Origin: Nitrospinaceae bacterium
GTDB taxonomy: Bacteria > Nitrospinota_A > UBA7883 > JAJDBK01
Length of the DNA: 64,000 nt
Reading direction: 5' to 3'
Assembly: GCA_029261405.1 (NCBI GenBank)
Contig: JAJDBK010000063.1
Coordinates: 29,086-93,085, forward strand
This document shows positions 1,040 through 60,513 of this stretch, piece by piece. The first letter of the stretch is position 1; the number at the start of each line of letters is the position of its first letter. The notes below the pieces were generated by a model. That model did no database searches, was not told the origin of the DNA, and worked only from the letters and a program-made list of their open reading frames with translations. The position numbers and the translations under genes were made by a program.

Positions 1040-1280
1040 CACATGAGCCTAAGTGATACTATTTTCTTTCTCTGGGAGCCTGTCAGACGCAGGGGTTCAT
1101 CAGCGAAGTGGTACGAGCAGGGCGAAAAGGAGCGGATTTGAGTCAGGTGTTTTGGTGCATTGAGGTGAATAGCGGAACTATTCGCCAAAAAAGAGCTATA
1201 AATCTGTTCGAGACTGTTTGTCGCTATGGTCGCAACACTTTGCAATAGAATCATCCTAAGCCCGACAGACTCCTGAAAAC
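1040..1280. repeat. Non-coding MITE-like repeat, copy A, with imperfect terminal inverted repeats (family shared with 45385..45590)
   Basis: Left end GGAGCCTGTCAGACGCAGGGGTTCATCAGCGAAGTGG and right end ...GAATCATCCTAAGCCCGACAGACTCCTG are imperfect reverse complements of each other. Internal blocks (TTGAGTCAG, TTTGAGGTG, TTCGCCAAAAAAGAGC) recur in copy B. Only a spurious minus-strand ORF overlaps it. Confidence 0.6.
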
Positions 1281-37493: not shown

Positions 37494-38240
37494 TTAGTGT
37501 AACAACGATTCGAGGGCGGTGTCGAATTCATCCTGGGCGACTTTTGTGCCGATGATCTGTTTTACGATAAGCCCGTCCTTCCCCACAGCCGTCACCAACG
37601 AGATATGCGCCCATATCTCCTCAGGATGAGGCATGTATGAAAATCCAAAAGCCGAAGTCAGATCCTTTACTGTTTCTTTCTCCGCCATGCCGAATGTCCA
37701 GTTAGGGAAATCGTCCAGATAACCCTCGGAATAATCTTTCATCATCGATACATCGTCGGTCTCCACATCGAAACTCACCGTTATCAACCGGAATTTATCC
37801 CCATGTTTTGAACTTGCCACCCTTGCCGCCCTCCCCATATTGCCGTTTATGGTGGGACAGATATGTGGACAGGTTGTGAACATGAAAGTTATGAAAAAAG
37901 GCTCACCGAAAAAATCGCCCAGGCTCACCTTTTTGCCACTGCTGTCTATGAATGATAACGAACCATCGACCTTGGTCCCTACTTTCGACAGGGCCAGCGG
38001 CATCCACTTTACCAACCTTTTATTCATCTCCGCCGGACTCATCATCTTGTGGTCGCTGGCCATTTTATGATCGCCCGACATTTTGTGGTCACCAGTCATT
38101 TTGTGGTCACCGGCCATTTTATGATCGCCGTGATCGTTATTCATTTGGCTGTGGTCATGGCTGTCAGCCGCCAGCGAGTCTTGCGCTCCGTAAAGCAGGG
38201 CCACAGATAATATCAGAGCGAAAATCGCGCTATTTCTCAT
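37494..38240 (-). CDS. SCO1/SenC family copper chaperone with N-terminal His/Met-rich pentarepeat
   Basis: Signal peptide; five tandem GDHKM(x) repeats; thioredoxin-fold CPHICP copper-binding motif. Confidence 0.75.
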   Translation of the reverse strand: MRNSAIFALILSVALLYGAQDSLAADSHDHSQMNNDHGDHKMAGDHKMTGDHKMSGDHKMASDHKMMSPAEMNKRLVKWMPLALSKVGTKVDGSLSFIDSSGKKVSLGDFFGEPFFITFMFTTCPHICPTINGNMGRAARVASSKHGDKFRLITVSFDVETDDVSMMKDYSEGYLDDFPNWTFGMAEKETVKDLTSAFGFSYMPHPEEIWAHISLVTAVGKDGLIVKQIIGTKVAQDEFDTALESLLH

Positions 38241-45384: not shown

Positions 45385-45590
45385 AGGAGTCTATCGGACT
45401 TAGGGGTTCGTTAGCGAAGTGGCGCGACCACAGCGATAAGGTTTTGAGTCAGATTTATTGCACTTTTGAGGTGTAATCGCCGTGGCCACGCCACTTCGCC
45501 GAAAAAGAGCGGATAATTTGGCCAAAACTGGGCCAACGGCGTGGTCGCGCCACTTGTAGCAGAATCATCCTAAGTCCGACAGGCTCCTGG
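45385..45590. repeat. Non-coding MITE-like repeat, copy B, with ~46 bp imperfect terminal inverted repeats
   Basis: Left end AGGAGTCTATCGGACTTAGGGGTTCGTTAGCGAAGTGGCGCGACCAC. The reverse complement of the right end is CCAGGAGCCTGTCGGACTTAGGATGATTCTGCTACAAGTGGCGCGACCAC. Internal blocks are shared with copy A. Confidence 0.65.
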
Positions 45591-52267: not shown

Positions 52268-54625
52268 TTACAGGGAGGATGGCTCCCCTTCTTTTATCAT
52301 CGATTCAAGGATTGTGAGGTTGTTGAGCACGAGTTTGGCGCTCGGATGGTTCTCCCCGTGGCGCTTCCTGTAGATATCGAGGGCGCTGGATGCGCACTCC
52401 CTTGCGCCTTCAAGGTCGCCCTGCGCTTTAAGGACAGAACCGAGATTGTTCAGGCGAACAGCCACCTTGGGATGGTCTTTTCCAAAAACCTTCCGGTCTA
52501 TTTCAAGAGCCCGTCTGTATTCGACTCTGGCGCCGTCAAGATCGCCCTGGGCTTTTAGCACAAAAGCGAGATTATTGAGCCGAATGGCTATCTTCGGATG
52601 TTCCGCACCGTAAACTCCGGTATCTATAGCTAAAGCGCGAGTGTAATTTTTTTTCGCGCCGTCAAGATCCCCCTCCGCCTTAAGTATGGAGCCAAGATTG
52701 TTCAGGCGAATGGCGACTAAAGCGTGGTTCTCCCCATAAACCCTCCTGTCCACCTGCAAGGCGAGTTGGTAATTTTTTTTCGCGCCGTCAAGATCCCCCG
52801 TAGCCTGAAGTGTCAGGCCCAGATTGTTAAGAAGAATAGCAATCAGAGGGCTTTCTTCATTAAACAAGCTGGTGACTATCTTAAGAGCGCGCCTGAAGTA
52901 TATTTCCGCCCCATGGTGATCCCCCTCCGAGAGCAGAAGTGAACCGAGACTGTTAAGACAGTTGGCGACATTTTCATGATCTCGCCCATACTCCGACTCC
53001 GCTACGGCAAGCGCCTTTGTAAGCAGGTGTTTCGCCTCTCCAACCTCTCCGCGTGTCAACATGAAGCGGGCGGCCCGGTTAAAGAGAATCCACGCCTTAT
53101 CGTAAGATACGTTAAGCCGCTTGGCATGGGTCGCCACCGATATTACATGGGGCAATAGAGATGCGTAGATGGGACGGGCTGTGAAATTGTTCTGATTGTA
53201 GGTGAAAACCTTTTCCATCATCAAAACGGCGTTTTTGGCGTATTTGACCCGGCTCTTTTTCATCCAGTCGAGCGTCACTGTCTGCACCATCGGATGCACG
53301 GAAAAACGTCTCTCCTCCTCCGTGGCGCATACATGGATGAGCGCGAGCCGGGTAAGAGGCTCGATGGCCCCGCCGAACCTGCTACCGTCCCTTATGGCCG
53401 CCGCAAGTTTTTTTGGCATAAGGTCCGCGCAGATCGTCAGCATCCACTCCGGAATGTTCTCCGAATGGAAGAATGCAAAGAGGTTCATGATATCGGCGAC
53501 CACATCTGATTCTTTCTGAGCCCGCTTGAAGGAAGTGAGCCAGACGGTTGCGATGGTTTTCCTGAAATCGCCAGGCTCATCGTGTTCCATGATTTTAATC
53601 CAGTTGCCCCGATAAAGCTCCAGGTAGGTGTCAAAACCGGTTCCCTCACAGGAGATGTATACACCAGCAAGCTCCAGCGCCAGAGGTAAGCCGGAAAGCT
53701 CACCCGCGAGTAGCCTTGCGATCTTCTCATCACCCATACGTCCTGTTCTTGCCACCAGATATTCCACAGACTCATCCAGAGTAAGAGGCTCCACCGAGAC
53801 CCGGGTGGCTTTGGTGGCGAAAGCCGGGTTCCTCGAAGTTATGATTACGGCGCCCTTTTCGACCGGTGGGAGGTAACCTGCGAGATCCTCAGGTTTTTCG
53901 GCGTTATCAAAAACCAGCAACCAGTCGCCATGCTCGCTGAGCCATTGCAGGACCGCTCTGGTTATCTCCTTTGACTTAAGCCCTCCAACACCCGCTATTC
54001 CAATCTCTTCGGCAAGCCCCTTGAAACCTTCATCCAACTGCGATTCGGTCTCCGACTCGATCCACCAGATGATCGAATAGTCGCCACTGTTTGCATAGAC
54101 GTACTCTACCGCCAGTCCTGTTTTTCCCATGCCTCCGGCTGGCTGTATCAGAGCCACCCGCTCCCCCTCCGCAAGTTTTGCGGAGAGTTTTTGAATCACG
54201 GTTTTGCGACCAGTGAAAAAGAGATTCCTGGTATGGGGAATGTTGTGGACTGTTTTGGGTAGCGCTTTTACGCCGCCATTGCATAGTTCCTTGAACGCGA
54301 ACGCCTCGGCGGACGATTTCCACTCCATAAGCTGGTTTGCCGTAAGGGTTTTGTCATGATCCACGCATTTTGAGCAGAGCCATACGAAGTTTTCGACATT
54401 CTTATTATCGTTTCCGTCGGGGGAAATCCGGACCGGCGTACCGGCAACCAGTGATTTGTATTTAAAGGTATCGGGGCCGGGTGTATATGAGCGGCAATCG
54501 GGATTGGAACATCTGTAATTTACCCTCTCGGCCAATATTCCCGCATCGACGTCCGAAAGGTTTTCCCTTGTTTCATTCATCATAGGTTTACGACAGATCA
54601 AAATTGAATGTGAAAATTTCCCCAA
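52268..54625 (-). CDS. STAND NTPase: N-terminal Cys-rich HNH-like zinc-finger domain + NB-ARC ATPase + C-terminal TPR repeats (NLR/Avs-like)
   Basis: P-loop GGMGKTGLA; Walker B LLVFDNAE; NB-ARC hallmark GLPLALELAG; seven or more TPR_10/12-type repeats (..NNLG.VL.A.GDL.GA...Y..AL.I...) in the C-terminal 300 aa; N-terminal CSNPDC...ISPDGNDNKNVENFVWLCSKCVDH (CxxxxC...N...LCxxC-H) resembles the HNH second half. Confidence 0.7.
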   Translation of the reverse strand: MGKFSHSILICRKPMMNETRENLSDVDAGILAERVNYRCSNPDCRSYTPGPDTFKYKSLVAGTPVRISPDGNDNKNVENFVWLCSKCVDHDKTLTANQLMEWKSSAEAFAFKELCNGGVKALPKTVHNIPHTRNLFFTGRKTVIQKLSAKLAEGERVALIQPAGGMGKTGLAVEYVYANSGDYSIIWWIESETESQLDEGFKGLAEEIGIAGVGGLKSKEITRAVLQWLSEHGDWLLVFDNAEKPEDLAGYLPPVEKGAVIITSRNPAFATKATRVSVEPLTLDESVEYLVARTGRMGDEKIARLLAGELSGLPLALELAGVYISCEGTGFDTYLELYRGNWIKIMEHDEPGDFRKTIATVWLTSFKRAQKESDVVADIMNLFAFFHSENIPEWMLTICADLMPKKLAAAIRDGSRFGGAIEPLTRLALIHVCATEEERRFSVHPMVQTVTLDWMKKSRVKYAKNAVLMMEKVFTYNQNNFTARPIYASLLPHVISVATHAKRLNVSYDKAWILFNRAARFMLTRGEVGEAKHLLTKALAVAESEYGRDHENVANCLNSLGSLLLSEGDHHGAEIYFRRALKIVTSLFNEESPLIAILLNNLGLTLQATGDLDGAKKNYQLALQVDRRVYGENHALVAIRLNNLGSILKAEGDLDGAKKNYTRALAIDTGVYGAEHPKIAIRLNNLAFVLKAQGDLDGARVEYRRALEIDRKVFGKDHPKVAVRLNNLGSVLKAQGDLEGARECASSALDIYRKRHGENHPSAKLVLNNLTILESMIKEGEPSSL

Positions 54626-54675: not shown

Positions 54676-56861
<2,186 letters not shown>

Positions 56862-56915
56862 TCAGCCATTGTATCGGCAGTGGCGAATGAGGACCGAAAA
56901 ATATTTGGAGAAAAA

Positions 56916-57311
56916 ATGTCTAAAGAGGATATCGAAGAGGGATTATCGCTGGTCGTTAATTTTGCAAAAAGAGGCGGATTGGTCCCCACCATGGTTCAGG
57001 AGGATGAAACCGGTGAAAACCTGATGCTGGCGTATGTAAATAAAGAAGCTCTTGATGAGACCATCCGTTCTGGCATGGCAACGTTCTGGTCCACCTCAAG
57101 AAACTGCCTTTGGAAAAAAGGGGAAACCTCAGGCGACTACCTGAAAATCATCGATATCCTCACCGACTGCGATCAGGACGCGCTGGTCTACAAGGTGAAA
57201 CTGATGGGGAAAGGCGCATGCCACACAACCGATAAAACCACAGGTGCATCCAGAAAAAGCTGTTTCTACAGAAAACTGGACAAAACCGGAAGCTCTCTAA
57301 CCAAAATGTAG
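56916..57311 (+). CDS. hisI: Phosphoribosyl-AMP cyclohydrolase
   Basis: LVPTMVQEDETGENLMLAYVNKEAL...WSTSRNCLWKKGETSG...DCDQDAL matches HisI; GGAG RBS at 56907-56910; the ORF-track start of 56490 is antisense overlap with tgt. Confidence 0.8.
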   Translation: MSKEDIEEGLSLVVNFAKRGGLVPTMVQEDETGENLMLAYVNKEALDETIRSGMATFWSTSRNCLWKKGETSGDYLKIIDILTDCDQDALVYKVKLMGKGACHTTDKTTGASRKSCFYRKLDKTGSSLTKM

Positions 57312-57354
57312 TGGCATACACTTCCTTTCGGGGTGCGTTGGCGCACTCCCCCAC

Positions 57355-57515
57355 CAGAAGGCCGTCCCATCGGGGCCACCTGAACAAACGTAATCAGATT
57401 ATCGGATATCCTGGCGTGTGTGACTTTGGGTGCGCCCTAAAGTAAGGACCCTCACCACTCGAAGGCCGCCCCATCGGGGCCGCCTGAACAAACGTAATCA
57501 GATTATCGATTCCTA
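57355..57515. repeat. Tandem direct repeat, 2 copies of ~105 bp, each with a GC-rich hairpin (GGCCGYCCC-ATC-GGGGCCRCC)
   Basis: GAAGGCCGTCCCATCGGGGCCACCTGAACAAACGTAATCAGATTATCGGA at ~57357 is repeated almost exactly at ~57462; lies between the convergent hisI and Panacea genes. Confidence 0.7.
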
Positions 57516-57545
57516 GCGAAGCGACTTTGGCCGTGGCCCAGCCAC

Positions 57546-57986
57546 TTAGAGGTATTCGAGGTAGGCTTTTTTTATTTCTTCTTTTTCCATGGTTTCGTCT
57601 CCGCCACCTTCGGCTTCGACCTTCTCCCGAACCGCTTTCCACGCCTCGTCCATGGCGGCTTCTTCAATCTCGTCGTCGGGCATTCGGGAGTAGTTTTCCC
57701 ACAATCCGTTCAGAAACTCTTCTACTTTGATGGTCAGGAACGGTTTTTTCTTGGCCGGGATGGTCTCCCATACACGTCCATATTTTTGGTATATCTTCCA
57801 AAGTGAAGGAAGGGTGGGGCCGTGGTTCCACGCCTCGAAATCCTCGTCGAAAAGGGCTTCTCCGGTATTGGCGAGCATCCACGCCTGGGCGAAATAGACC
57901 AGCCGCTGAAGCTTTACGTGAGTAACCCCGCCTTCGGAGATGAAAAGAAAATAATCGGCGACATCCTCTGGAGCGACTTTTGCCAT
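57546..57986 (-). CDS. Panacea domain (DUF4065, SocA/GepA-like) protein, putative antitoxin, orphan
   Basis: VADYFL...KLQRLVYFAQAWMLANTGEALFDEDFEAWNHGPTLPSLW matches the DUF4065/Panacea core; no adjacent toxin ORF recognised. Confidence 0.6.
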   Translation of the reverse strand: MAKVAPEDVADYFLFISEGGVTHVKLQRLVYFAQAWMLANTGEALFDEDFEAWNHGPTLPSLWKIYQKYGRVWETIPAKKKPFLTIKVEEFLNGLWENYSRMPDDEIEEAAMDEAWKAVREKVEAEGGGDETMEKEEIKKAYLEYL

Positions 57987-58114
57987 GCTATCCCGTATTA
58001 GATTAATACCGTCATTATATCATCCATTCGGGTAAAAAAACACCTTTCCAGCCGGTTTGCGGGTAACGTATAGTTCTGTTAGAAAAAGAAACCATCAACT
58101 GAAACTGTAATCTG

Positions 58115-58912
58115 ATGTCAAACTTCTCACGGTTTAAAAACAGGCTGTTAGCCAAAGCTCTCACCCGGTTCCCTATCCTCGCCCGTATGATGGCGGCCAA
58201 GGTTAAACCACTCGAGTTTGACACAATACCCTGGGCGCCTTTACGAGGCCCACTCAAAGAAATGAAAGTGGCGCTGATAACCACAGCCGGTGTTCATCTT
58301 GTCGATGATAAACCTTTCGACATGAACGACAAAACAGGTGACCCGACGTTCCGGGTCGTGCCATCCTCCACACCTGCGGAGAACCTCGCAATTACCCACG
58401 ACTACTACAACCATAAAGACGCCGATACGGATATAAACATCGTTTTTCCCATTCACAGACTTGCAGAGTTCGCCAGCGAAGGACGAATCGGGGCCGTGGC
58501 GGAACGGCATTTCGGGTTTATGGGACATATCGAGGAGAACCACCTCGACCAATTCATTAATGAACAGATTCCGGCGGTAACCGCCATGCTGAAAGAAGAT
58601 GGGGTCGATGTAGTCCTCATCACACCTGGATGAGGATTGTGCAATCGGTCCGGTGGACTGATCCAGCGAGTTCTTGAAGCGGAAGGCATAAGTAGTGTCG
58701 GCGTTTCGATTGAACGGAAATTTACGGAAGAGATAAAACCTCCCAGGTCGATCTACTTAAAATGGCCCTATGGACATCCTCTCGGAGAGCCGGGAAACGT
58801 GAAACAACAAAGAGCGGTCATGAACAAAGCCTTTGAACTGCTCGAAACCGCCACCCAGCCCGGAGTCATCGATGATATCCCGTTCAGGTGGAGAAGAGAG
58901 AAATATGACTGA
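58115..58912 (+). CDS. GrdB/PrdB-family (glycine/sarcosine/betaine/D-proline reductase B-like) selenoprotein; in-frame UGA (Sec) at 58631..58633
   Basis: ORFs 58115..58633 and 58637..58912 are in the same frame, separated only by TGA. The junction reads ITPG-U-GLCNRSGG (U-x-x-C redox motif). The N-terminal part has the PrdB/GrdB-like pattern (..PL.E.KVALITTAGVH...FPI.RL.E...EG.IG.....FGFMG). Confidence 0.6.
58644..58662 (+). promoter_or_regulatory. SECIS-like hairpin 10 nt downstream of the in-frame UGA
   Basis: AUCGGUCC-GGU-GGACUGAU: 8 bp stem (one G-U pair) with a G/U-containing apical loop, at the spacing expected for a bacterial SECIS. Confidence 0.45.
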
Positions 58913-59583: not shown

Positions 59584-59672
<89 letters not shown>

Positions 59673-59916
59673 CACCCTTACGGGTGCTTTGCGCGGGCGC
59701 GTGGTACCCAACCTGGCACAAGCTCCTTGCCACCCAAGTCATAGGGTCGGTATTCTTGATTTTCCGTCAAAGACCGGCAGAGTCGATTTGACCTGCACTT
59801 TTCCTGATGTGGCAATTTGGAACGCACCCCCGTACTGGACTGTTCGGATTACAACTTGATGGTCTGTCTGGAAAAAGATGTGCGTGTGGAGGAGATAGCC
59901 GAAACCCGAACACTTT

Positions 59917-60168
59917 TTAACTATTGTGTGACCAGAACTCTTTCGGATCGATTTCAAACCTTCGTAACAGGGCGGAGAGTGTCCCTTGTCGGACCTCCGT
60001 TTTTGCGCCGTGGTATTTAATGGGGTATATCGGGCCTTTCATTGAACCGGGAGATTCCGGCTTCAAAAGGATTCGCTCGGAACCTTTGCCCCGTTTTTTT
60101 GTGCACTCAACAACTCCGTAAGACTGGAGCCTTGTTAAAAGCTCTTTGTAGCTAAGGGACTTTCCCAA
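59917..60168 (-). CDS. hicA: HicA/YcfA-like toxin (type II TA), degenerate catalytic motif
   Basis: 83 aa; LLTRLQSYGVVECTKKRGKGSERILLKP fits the HicA dsRBD-like pattern, but GSHH is replaced by GSER; 4 nt downstream of the hicB-like gene. Confidence 0.5.
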   Translation of the reverse strand: MGKSLSYKELLTRLQSYGVVECTKKRGKGSERILLKPESPGSMKGPIYPIKYHGAKTEVRQGTLSALLRRFEIDPKEFWSHNS

Positions 60169-60171
60169 AGC

Positions 60172-60513
60172 TTAAACTACAGTGCAGGTGTTTGTAATAA
60201 CTTCCGATGGCACGAACACTTTTGGACCATTTTCTTGTGAGGACCGGCTTCCAATACGAAGAATTTCAGATGTGGTCCTCTCCGGGCATTCATAAAATTG
60301 CTTCCAAACTTCGGTGGGCGCTGATCGGTACAAATTATCGAGGTTATTGTTGCTGAACGCGAAATCGATCTGCGTGATAATCAATTCCCTGATGTCATCC
60401 ATGACACCTGTCTGAGTGTCAGACTCCGCCACTATGTCTAACTCAAGACAGTGGGCTACGAACGTATCACCGTCACGTTTAATGAAAATATTAAAAACCA
60501 TGGAGTTATCCAT
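60172..60513 (-). CDS. hicB: HicB-like antitoxin (UPF0150 family)
   Basis: MVFNIFIKRDGDTFVAHCLELDIVAESDTQTGVMDDIRELIITQI matches the HicB N-terminal RNase-H-like fold pattern. Confidence 0.55.
   Translation of the reverse strand: MDNSMVFNIFIKRDGDTFVAHCLELDIVAESDTQTGVMDDIRELIITQIDFAFSNNNLDNLYRSAPTEVWKQFYECPERTTSEILRIGSRSSQENGPKVFVPSEVITNTCTVV

Follow-up and report, generated by a model that had tools for sequence, protein, structure and literature searches.

Can a stand-alone Panacea (DUF4065) gene that has no toxin gene beside it still be read as one half of a toxin-antitoxin (TA) module, and if so, where is the toxin? The question is raised by a panA-like gene located at 57546..57986 (minus strand; 146 amino acids, beginning with ATG) of the window, by which we mean the whole 64-kb stretch of DNA that was analysed. 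The preliminary description of this DNA implied that a lone Panacea gene is out of the ordinary. This is overstated: of the 2,281 DUF4065 proteins surveyed by Kurata et al. 2022 (PMC8832971), 1,313 are found in preliminary and only 1,268 in reliable TA-like loci, which leaves approximately 44% without a TA-like locus. Solitary genes of this family are already known, and the window gene is a divergent addition to them.

Domain and predicted fold

PF13274 (SocA_Panacea) aligns with the window protein from the first to the last of its 113 model positions, scoring 55.1 bits where the gathering score is 25.7 (E 1.7e-14), and phrog_1281 matches the protein as well (E 4.9e-31). The preliminary description had reported a DUF4065/Panacea core, quoting a peptide that corresponds exactly to residues 25-63, and had left its confirmation to a profile search; the full-length match to PF13274, above the gathering score, provides it.

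An alignment of 27 relatives served as input for an AlphaFold2 model, which reached a pLDDT of 95.7 and a pTM of 0.91, a confidence that partly mirrors this alignment. The model comprises seven helices and two short strands, arranged as published for Panacea, namely alpha1-alpha7 plus beta1-beta2 (Ernits et al. 2023, PMC10440598). There are no spare residues at either terminus for an HTH, PAD1, zinc-binding (ZBD) or Phd-C extension. The GPV sequence in strand beta2 is a conserved Panacea motif (PMC8832971); in the window protein G56 and P57 are kept and the valine is replaced by threonine (GPT), while the two nearest relatives carry GPI and GPS. In the PanA of V. harveyi, the substitution V64S by itself left function unabolished.

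The anti-phage defence models of PADLOC gave no match to the window Panacea protein. A foreign island was considered on the basis of composition and rejected, the GC content of the gene (~0.52) being that of its surroundings.

Gene neighbourhood

Both neighbours of the Panacea gene are located on the plus strand. Downstream of it lies the convergent hisI gene (phosphoribosyl-AMP cyclohydrolase; 56913..57311; PF01502, 97.8 bits), and upstream a divergent GrdB-like selenoprotein gene (58115..58912; PF07355, 32.5 bits). The latter reads from 58115..58633, meets an in-frame TGA at 58634-58636 and continues in the same frame over 58637..58912; from its position exactly at the end of the PF07355 match, this TGA is consistent with a selenocysteine codon. 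The divergently transcribed selenoprotein gene that had been named as the upstream neighbour thus agrees with both the profile and the in-frame TGA.

Because its upstream neighbour is divergent and its downstream neighbour convergent, the Panacea gene is monocistronic by layout. The divergent intergenic region (57987..58114, 128 bp) presumably holds the promoters of both genes; the sole sigma-70-like site in it lies on the plus strand (58045-58074), and the promoter search of the minus strand gave no consensus match. The spacer between the convergent hisI and Panacea genes (57312..57545, 234 bp) reaches the hisI stop codon and is too short to hold the ~145-aa partner gene that accompanies more distant relatives. 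Farther neighbours include tgt, a HemN-like radical-SAM gene, a gene for an NB-ARC/TPR protein, a lipoprotein-like ORF, tRNA-Ser, a HicA/HicB-like pair and a GGDEF gene. With both neighbours on the opposite strand and no ORF with a credible Shine-Dalgarno sequence in either flank, the gene has no recognisable adjacent partner, as had first been described.

The flanking spacers and the 54-nt repeat

A partner in the form of an RNA or a small peptide had been proposed within 57312..57545, and both spacers were searched, as had been suggested, for small ORFs with a ribosome-binding site. No ORF of at least 12 aa with a credible Shine-Dalgarno sequence was found in 57312..57545 or 57987..58114, most candidates starting with GTG or TTG. 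The sole minus-strand ORF in the 57987..58114 region would encode a peptide of 26-27 aa (58098..58015) without a Shine-Dalgarno sequence, and a Pfam search of the 89-aa antisense ORF at 58015..58284 and of a 44-aa spacer ORF gave no match. The Rfam search of the spacer, extended to E values up to 1, revealed no family, and 57312..57545 folds no better than shuffled sequence (z of -1.6 for the minus and -0.2 for the plus strand). Together with the lack of any similar sequence beside homologs, these results lend no support to a partner in either spacer.

What the hisI-Panacea spacer does contain is a 54-nt direct-repeat core in two copies (57351..57404 and 57455..57508), 93% identical and spaced 104 nt start to start; the remainder of the ~104-nt unit is poorly conserved in comparison. 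A weak partial third unit can be seen by eye only. The downstream sequence had been described as a non-coding tandem-repeat region; the two cores bear this out in part, but Tandem Repeats Finder reports no array in the spacer and the copies number only two. No other local non-coding repeat in the 64-kb window is as long as this core. A REP- or MITE-like family spread through the genome was rejected as its source: apart from the two copies the window has none, and searches of the viral, GTDB-genome and JGI-metagenome collections gave no match. A 9-nt inverted match on either side of the Panacea gene is about what is expected by chance.

The best phage homolog of the window protein (36% identity; Cylindrospermopsis raciborskii virus RM-2018a, MH636380, L003 3119-3450) is followed, 178 nt downstream, by a five-repeat mini-CRISPR array, which has no relation to the window repeats. 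A Panacea gene with a CRISPR array after it, in cyanophage CrV-01T, was considered as a parallel to the arrangement of gene plus repeats and rejected; the repeats there form an ordinary mini-CRISPR array, the sequence and period of which are unrelated to those of the window repeats.

The nearest relatives form a small solitary clade

A word-index search for close homologs returned only the window protein itself, and a viral scan returned none; an identical copy is present on a Logan contig, which matches the window at 100% identity over a length of 2,205 bp. An exhaustive HMMER search for homologs (E up to 1e-3), resulting in 6,345 representative clusters, revealed only two close relatives, P0002 (45% identity, E 4.6e-31) and P0003 (37% identity, E 1e-27). 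These two and the window protein are all singleton clusters. The P0002 gene is located downstream of leuS at a distance of 77 nt, and beyond it come, in this order, a convergent membrane ORF and gyrase/topoisomerase-type genes; the P0003 gene is divergent from dcd (dCTP deaminase) and is followed by a convergent 38-aa ORF. Neither a co-directional partner gene nor a comparable repeat is found beside P0002 or P0003, one of which is carried on a 1.2-kb contig with 222 nt of downstream sequence visible.

In the preliminary description, homologs that were consistently solitary had been held to speak against an orphan antitoxin. The two nearest homologs are indeed solitary, but the wider family is overwhelmingly paired. 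A comparison of neighbourhoods, proposed at the same time, accordingly gives a divided picture, with P0002 and P0003 standing alone and the more distant homologs being accompanied by one conserved downstream gene.

In a neighbour-joining tree the window protein, P0002 and P0003 fall together, outside the paired bulk, a grouping that could be the product of long-branch attraction. The core residues Q27, Y31, W36, A52, W53, G56, P57, E108, W116 and R120 are common to all three. They also share changes at columns which are 88-100% conserved among paired PanAs, as computed over 56 distinct sequences (K28R, Y32F/L, V58T/I/S, A104D, H112M/K, E113D and M138I), as well as a one-residue deletion read from the alignment. 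P0029, P0053 and other database proteins closely resemble them in the N-terminal half; because these proteins have the mainstream KLQKL and TH motifs, we place them outside the solitary clade. Relative to the set of Kurata et al. 2022, what is new is this small divergent clade with three known members, all of them solitary.

Residue 112 of the window protein, where His is replaced by Met, is located at the C-terminal end of helix 5. In the stand-alone PanA of B. choladocola, the substitution H120E "at the C-terminal end of alpha5" abolishes neutralisation (PMC10440598). Judged by position, rather than by alignment to that protein, residue 112 would be the equivalent of H120. The shared substitutions at partner-contact positions could equally reflect a changed function.

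The wider family is organised in two-gene operons

A metagenome scan with a 10-sequence alignment gave 80 loci, the homologs being 31-41% identical to the window protein over most of its length; two shorter matches reach 43-49% identity. A co-directional ORF of ~143-150 aa lies downstream of panA in 54 metagenome loci, usually overlapping the panA stop codon by 4-26 nt, and BLAST clustering places 49 of 54 downstream ORFs of at least 60 aa in one homologous family. With a six-frame HMM search the ~145-aa partner was detected in 62 of the 70 metagenome loci having enough downstream sequence, a figure that takes in frameshifted relics; some of these loci are near-duplicates and the counts therefore not independent. 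The same search revealed frameshifted or relic copies of the partner at L086, L087, L102 and L167, from which we conclude that toxin decay occurs in this family.

The ~145-aa partner has no match in Pfam and no sequence-level relative in the PDB, and matches the C-terminus of PADLOC NsnC weakly (E 2.5e-5). Its C-terminal region carries the motif HGF-x5-F-(I/L)-VWLD-x2-H; members of the family lie, for example, at L092 1376-1834 and L101 4419-4850. Presumably the family is one of the uncharacterised PanT toxin clusters.

In a six-frame search of the 64-kb window with the partner-family HMM, the best hit had an E value of 1.7, with nothing in the spacer and no relic; the window gene is for this reason an orphan relative to its own family. 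The panA-partner architecture is conserved only among relatives that are at most 41% identical to the window protein.

Comparison with known systems

By the definition of PMC8832971, a PanAT locus requires a second gene, located on the strand of panA at a distance of no more than 100 nt and conserved across species. The window gene has no same-strand gene within 100 nt, and no pairing is conserved in its nearest relatives. Like the stand-alone PanAs of B. choladocola and Gelidibacter mesophilus, the window protein is a single Panacea domain of ~150 aa without extensions, with the same architecture and the Q/AW/GP residues. It differs from the stand-alone PanAs of PanAT loci in lacking an adjacent toxin gene, in having GPT in place of GPV, and in having Met in place of the His at the end of helix 5. 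The PanAs of the panA-partner operons (L088-L167) are 31-41% identical to it and have an equal length and domain layout; the downstream partner, which overlaps the panA stop codon there, is absent from the window and has left no relic. From DUF4065 proteins outside TA-like loci there is no difference in kind, the conserved two-gene neighbourhood being missing in both cases.

SocA of Caulobacter crescentus is a type VI antitoxin that serves as the ClpXP adaptor for SocB. The window protein shares the Panacea domain with it, but the NCBIfam SocA model NF047745 aligns to residues 18-88 only, with 58.8 bits against an equivalog cut-off of 190, and no co-directional partner gene is found beside the window gene. 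Type III TA systems are characterised by a short tandem-repeat array located upstream of, and co-transcribed with, the gene for an endoribonuclease toxin. Here there are only two 54-nt cores, located downstream of the gene, and the predicted fold is of the antitoxin type and not ToxN-like. DarG of the M. tuberculosis DarTG complex (PDB 7yk3 chain D) is 20% identical to the window protein, which is not a sequence-level match; the 146 residues are filled by the Panacea domain, so that a macrodomain could not be accommodated, and the neighbourhood lacks a DarT-like gene.

Origin and possible function

The reading that we favour, tentatively, is that the window protein is an orphan PanA-type toxin-binding protein, derived from a panA-panT operon of which the toxin gene has been lost, and acting, if it is active at all, by direct binding in trans. 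Its ancestor would have been a two-gene operon like those of the next-nearest relatives. The panT gene would have been lost long ago, and the Panacea gene would have persisted alone. If still active, the protein would bind its toxin directly through the globular Panacea core, in the manner of other stand-alone PanAs, which neutralise toxins directly (PMC10440598); the target might be a PanT-type toxin encountered in trans, arriving for example with a phage or mobile element. The domain, the fold, the monocistronic layout, the lack of the usual partner or of its relic, and the solitary state of the two nearest relatives are established by the analysis. What we infer is the descent of the gene from a paired module and whatever binding its product may exert today. 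Since the window contains no relic of a toxin gene, the loss of the toxin is read from the relatives and not seen in the window itself.

In place of a toxin-binding protein, the three-member clade might represent a domesticated, non-TA function that is kept alone, such as sensing a cellular target or serving as its adaptor (a protease adaptor, like SocA with ClpXP, would be one example). We regard this as rather unlikely, although all three genes are intact, solitary and located beside core genes (hisI/tgt, leuS and dcd), and their common derived substitutions fall at positions nearly invariant in toxin-paired PanAs. Ernits et al. 2023 (PMC10440598) have moreover proposed that in some antitoxins the role of Panacea is primarily sensory. 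The three neighbourhoods differ, however, so that neither an operon nor synteny is conserved that would hint at a cellular function; with 3 of 6,345 representative clusters the clade is very small, and it is patchy, as is expected of accessory genes, and the score with the SocA equivalog model is far below its cut-off. That the gene is instead a functionless remnant, an antitoxin gene left after toxin loss with its degradation still to come, is unlikely. The decay of the partner at four metagenome loci, the substitutions at otherwise conserved sites and the want of a consensus promoter on the minus strand are what such a remnant might display, but the ORF is intact, nearly all of the fold-defining residues are kept, and the model is confidently folded, with a confidence that is in part alignment-driven. 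Furthermore, the two relatives, at no more than 37-45% identity, also have intact genes that stand alone, which speaks for maintenance over a long time.

Improbable to a similar degree is a cognate toxin encoded elsewhere in the genome, beyond the window, the TA pair being split or encoded in trans. The genes of type II TA systems are nearly always adjacent, which counts against this explanation, as does the absence of the family's usual partner from the window. The other genes within 3 kb are housekeeping genes, the lipoprotein-like ORF (no Pfam match) and the self-contained HicA/HicB-like pair. It retains some probability because the search covered 64 kb of the genome, on a contig of 109,613 bp, and because PanA partners are extremely diverse (88 clusters, PMC8832971), so that an HMM for a single partner family would miss others. 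A non-canonical partner, either an RNA or a micro-peptide, produced from the repeats of 104-nt period in 57312..57545 is highly improbable. The identity of the 54-nt cores, far above that of the rest of the unit, and their rank as the longest local non-coding repeat of the window count in its favour, as does a plus-strand frame, shared by the two copies, in which each could be read as an Arg-rich peptide (TRRPSHRGHLNKRNQII and TRRPPHRGRLNKRNQII). There are only the two copies, though; the peptides would start with GTG or TTG without a Shine-Dalgarno sequence, and two of the four differences between the copies are non-synonymous. No base-pair covariation is apparent by eye, folding is not above that of shuffled sequence and no Rfam family matches, the core is found nowhere else in three public collections, and no comparable repeat follows the two nearest relatives. 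We know of no protein antitoxin of an RNA toxin.

A bolder interpretation would have the window protein and its two relatives leave TA biology altogether, as single genes among housekeeping genes whose toxin-contact positions have been remodelled and whose products act as sensor or adaptor for a cellular target. This is distinctly unlikely, and a variant in which the three Panacea proteins work with an RNA or peptide product of adjacent 104-nt repeats is even less likely. As an orphan PanA, the window gene is a single example, from an uncultured genome, of a known phenomenon and requires no new mechanism. Panacea proteins outside recognisable TA loci, nearly half of all, have to our knowledge been studied by nobody. 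A small clade of which all members are solitary and intact, and which is altered at partner-contact positions, would be a convenient test of whether orphan PanAs bind toxins, in immunity or anti-addiction, or have another role.

Other features of the window

Among 185,579 GTDB species representatives, none has a Tgt protein more than 58% identical to that of the window (55761-56861, minus strand), the best match being a Thermodesulfobacteriota MAG; the source of the window is thus without a close sequenced relative in that set. Neither a Panacea gene nor the 54-nt repeat was found at the loci of the Tgt relatives (L004-L083).

The region 59584-60513 holds tRNA-Ser(GCT) and, after it, a pair of small minus-strand genes. 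The first of these, HicA-like (59917-60168), matches PF07927 with 22 bits, which is below the gathering score; the second (60172-60513) has no Pfam match and an N-terminus that is HicB-like by eye. The two genes adjoining the tRNA gene are a probable TA pair.

A 785-aa protein with NB-ARC and TPR domains (STAND-type) is encoded at 52268-54625 (minus strand), 3 kb from the Panacea gene. Its N-terminal ~130 residues are Cys-rich; the protein is a possible defence NTPase. At 38042-38129, four to five tandem 18-nt units are present within an ORF (37494-38240, minus strand), where they would encode a six-residue peptide repeat. Lastly, a 36-nt motif occurs twice in the window (1240-1275 and 45554-45589); the two copies are 86% identical, 44 kb apart and each near the end of a long ORF, and they may constitute a shared regulatory site.
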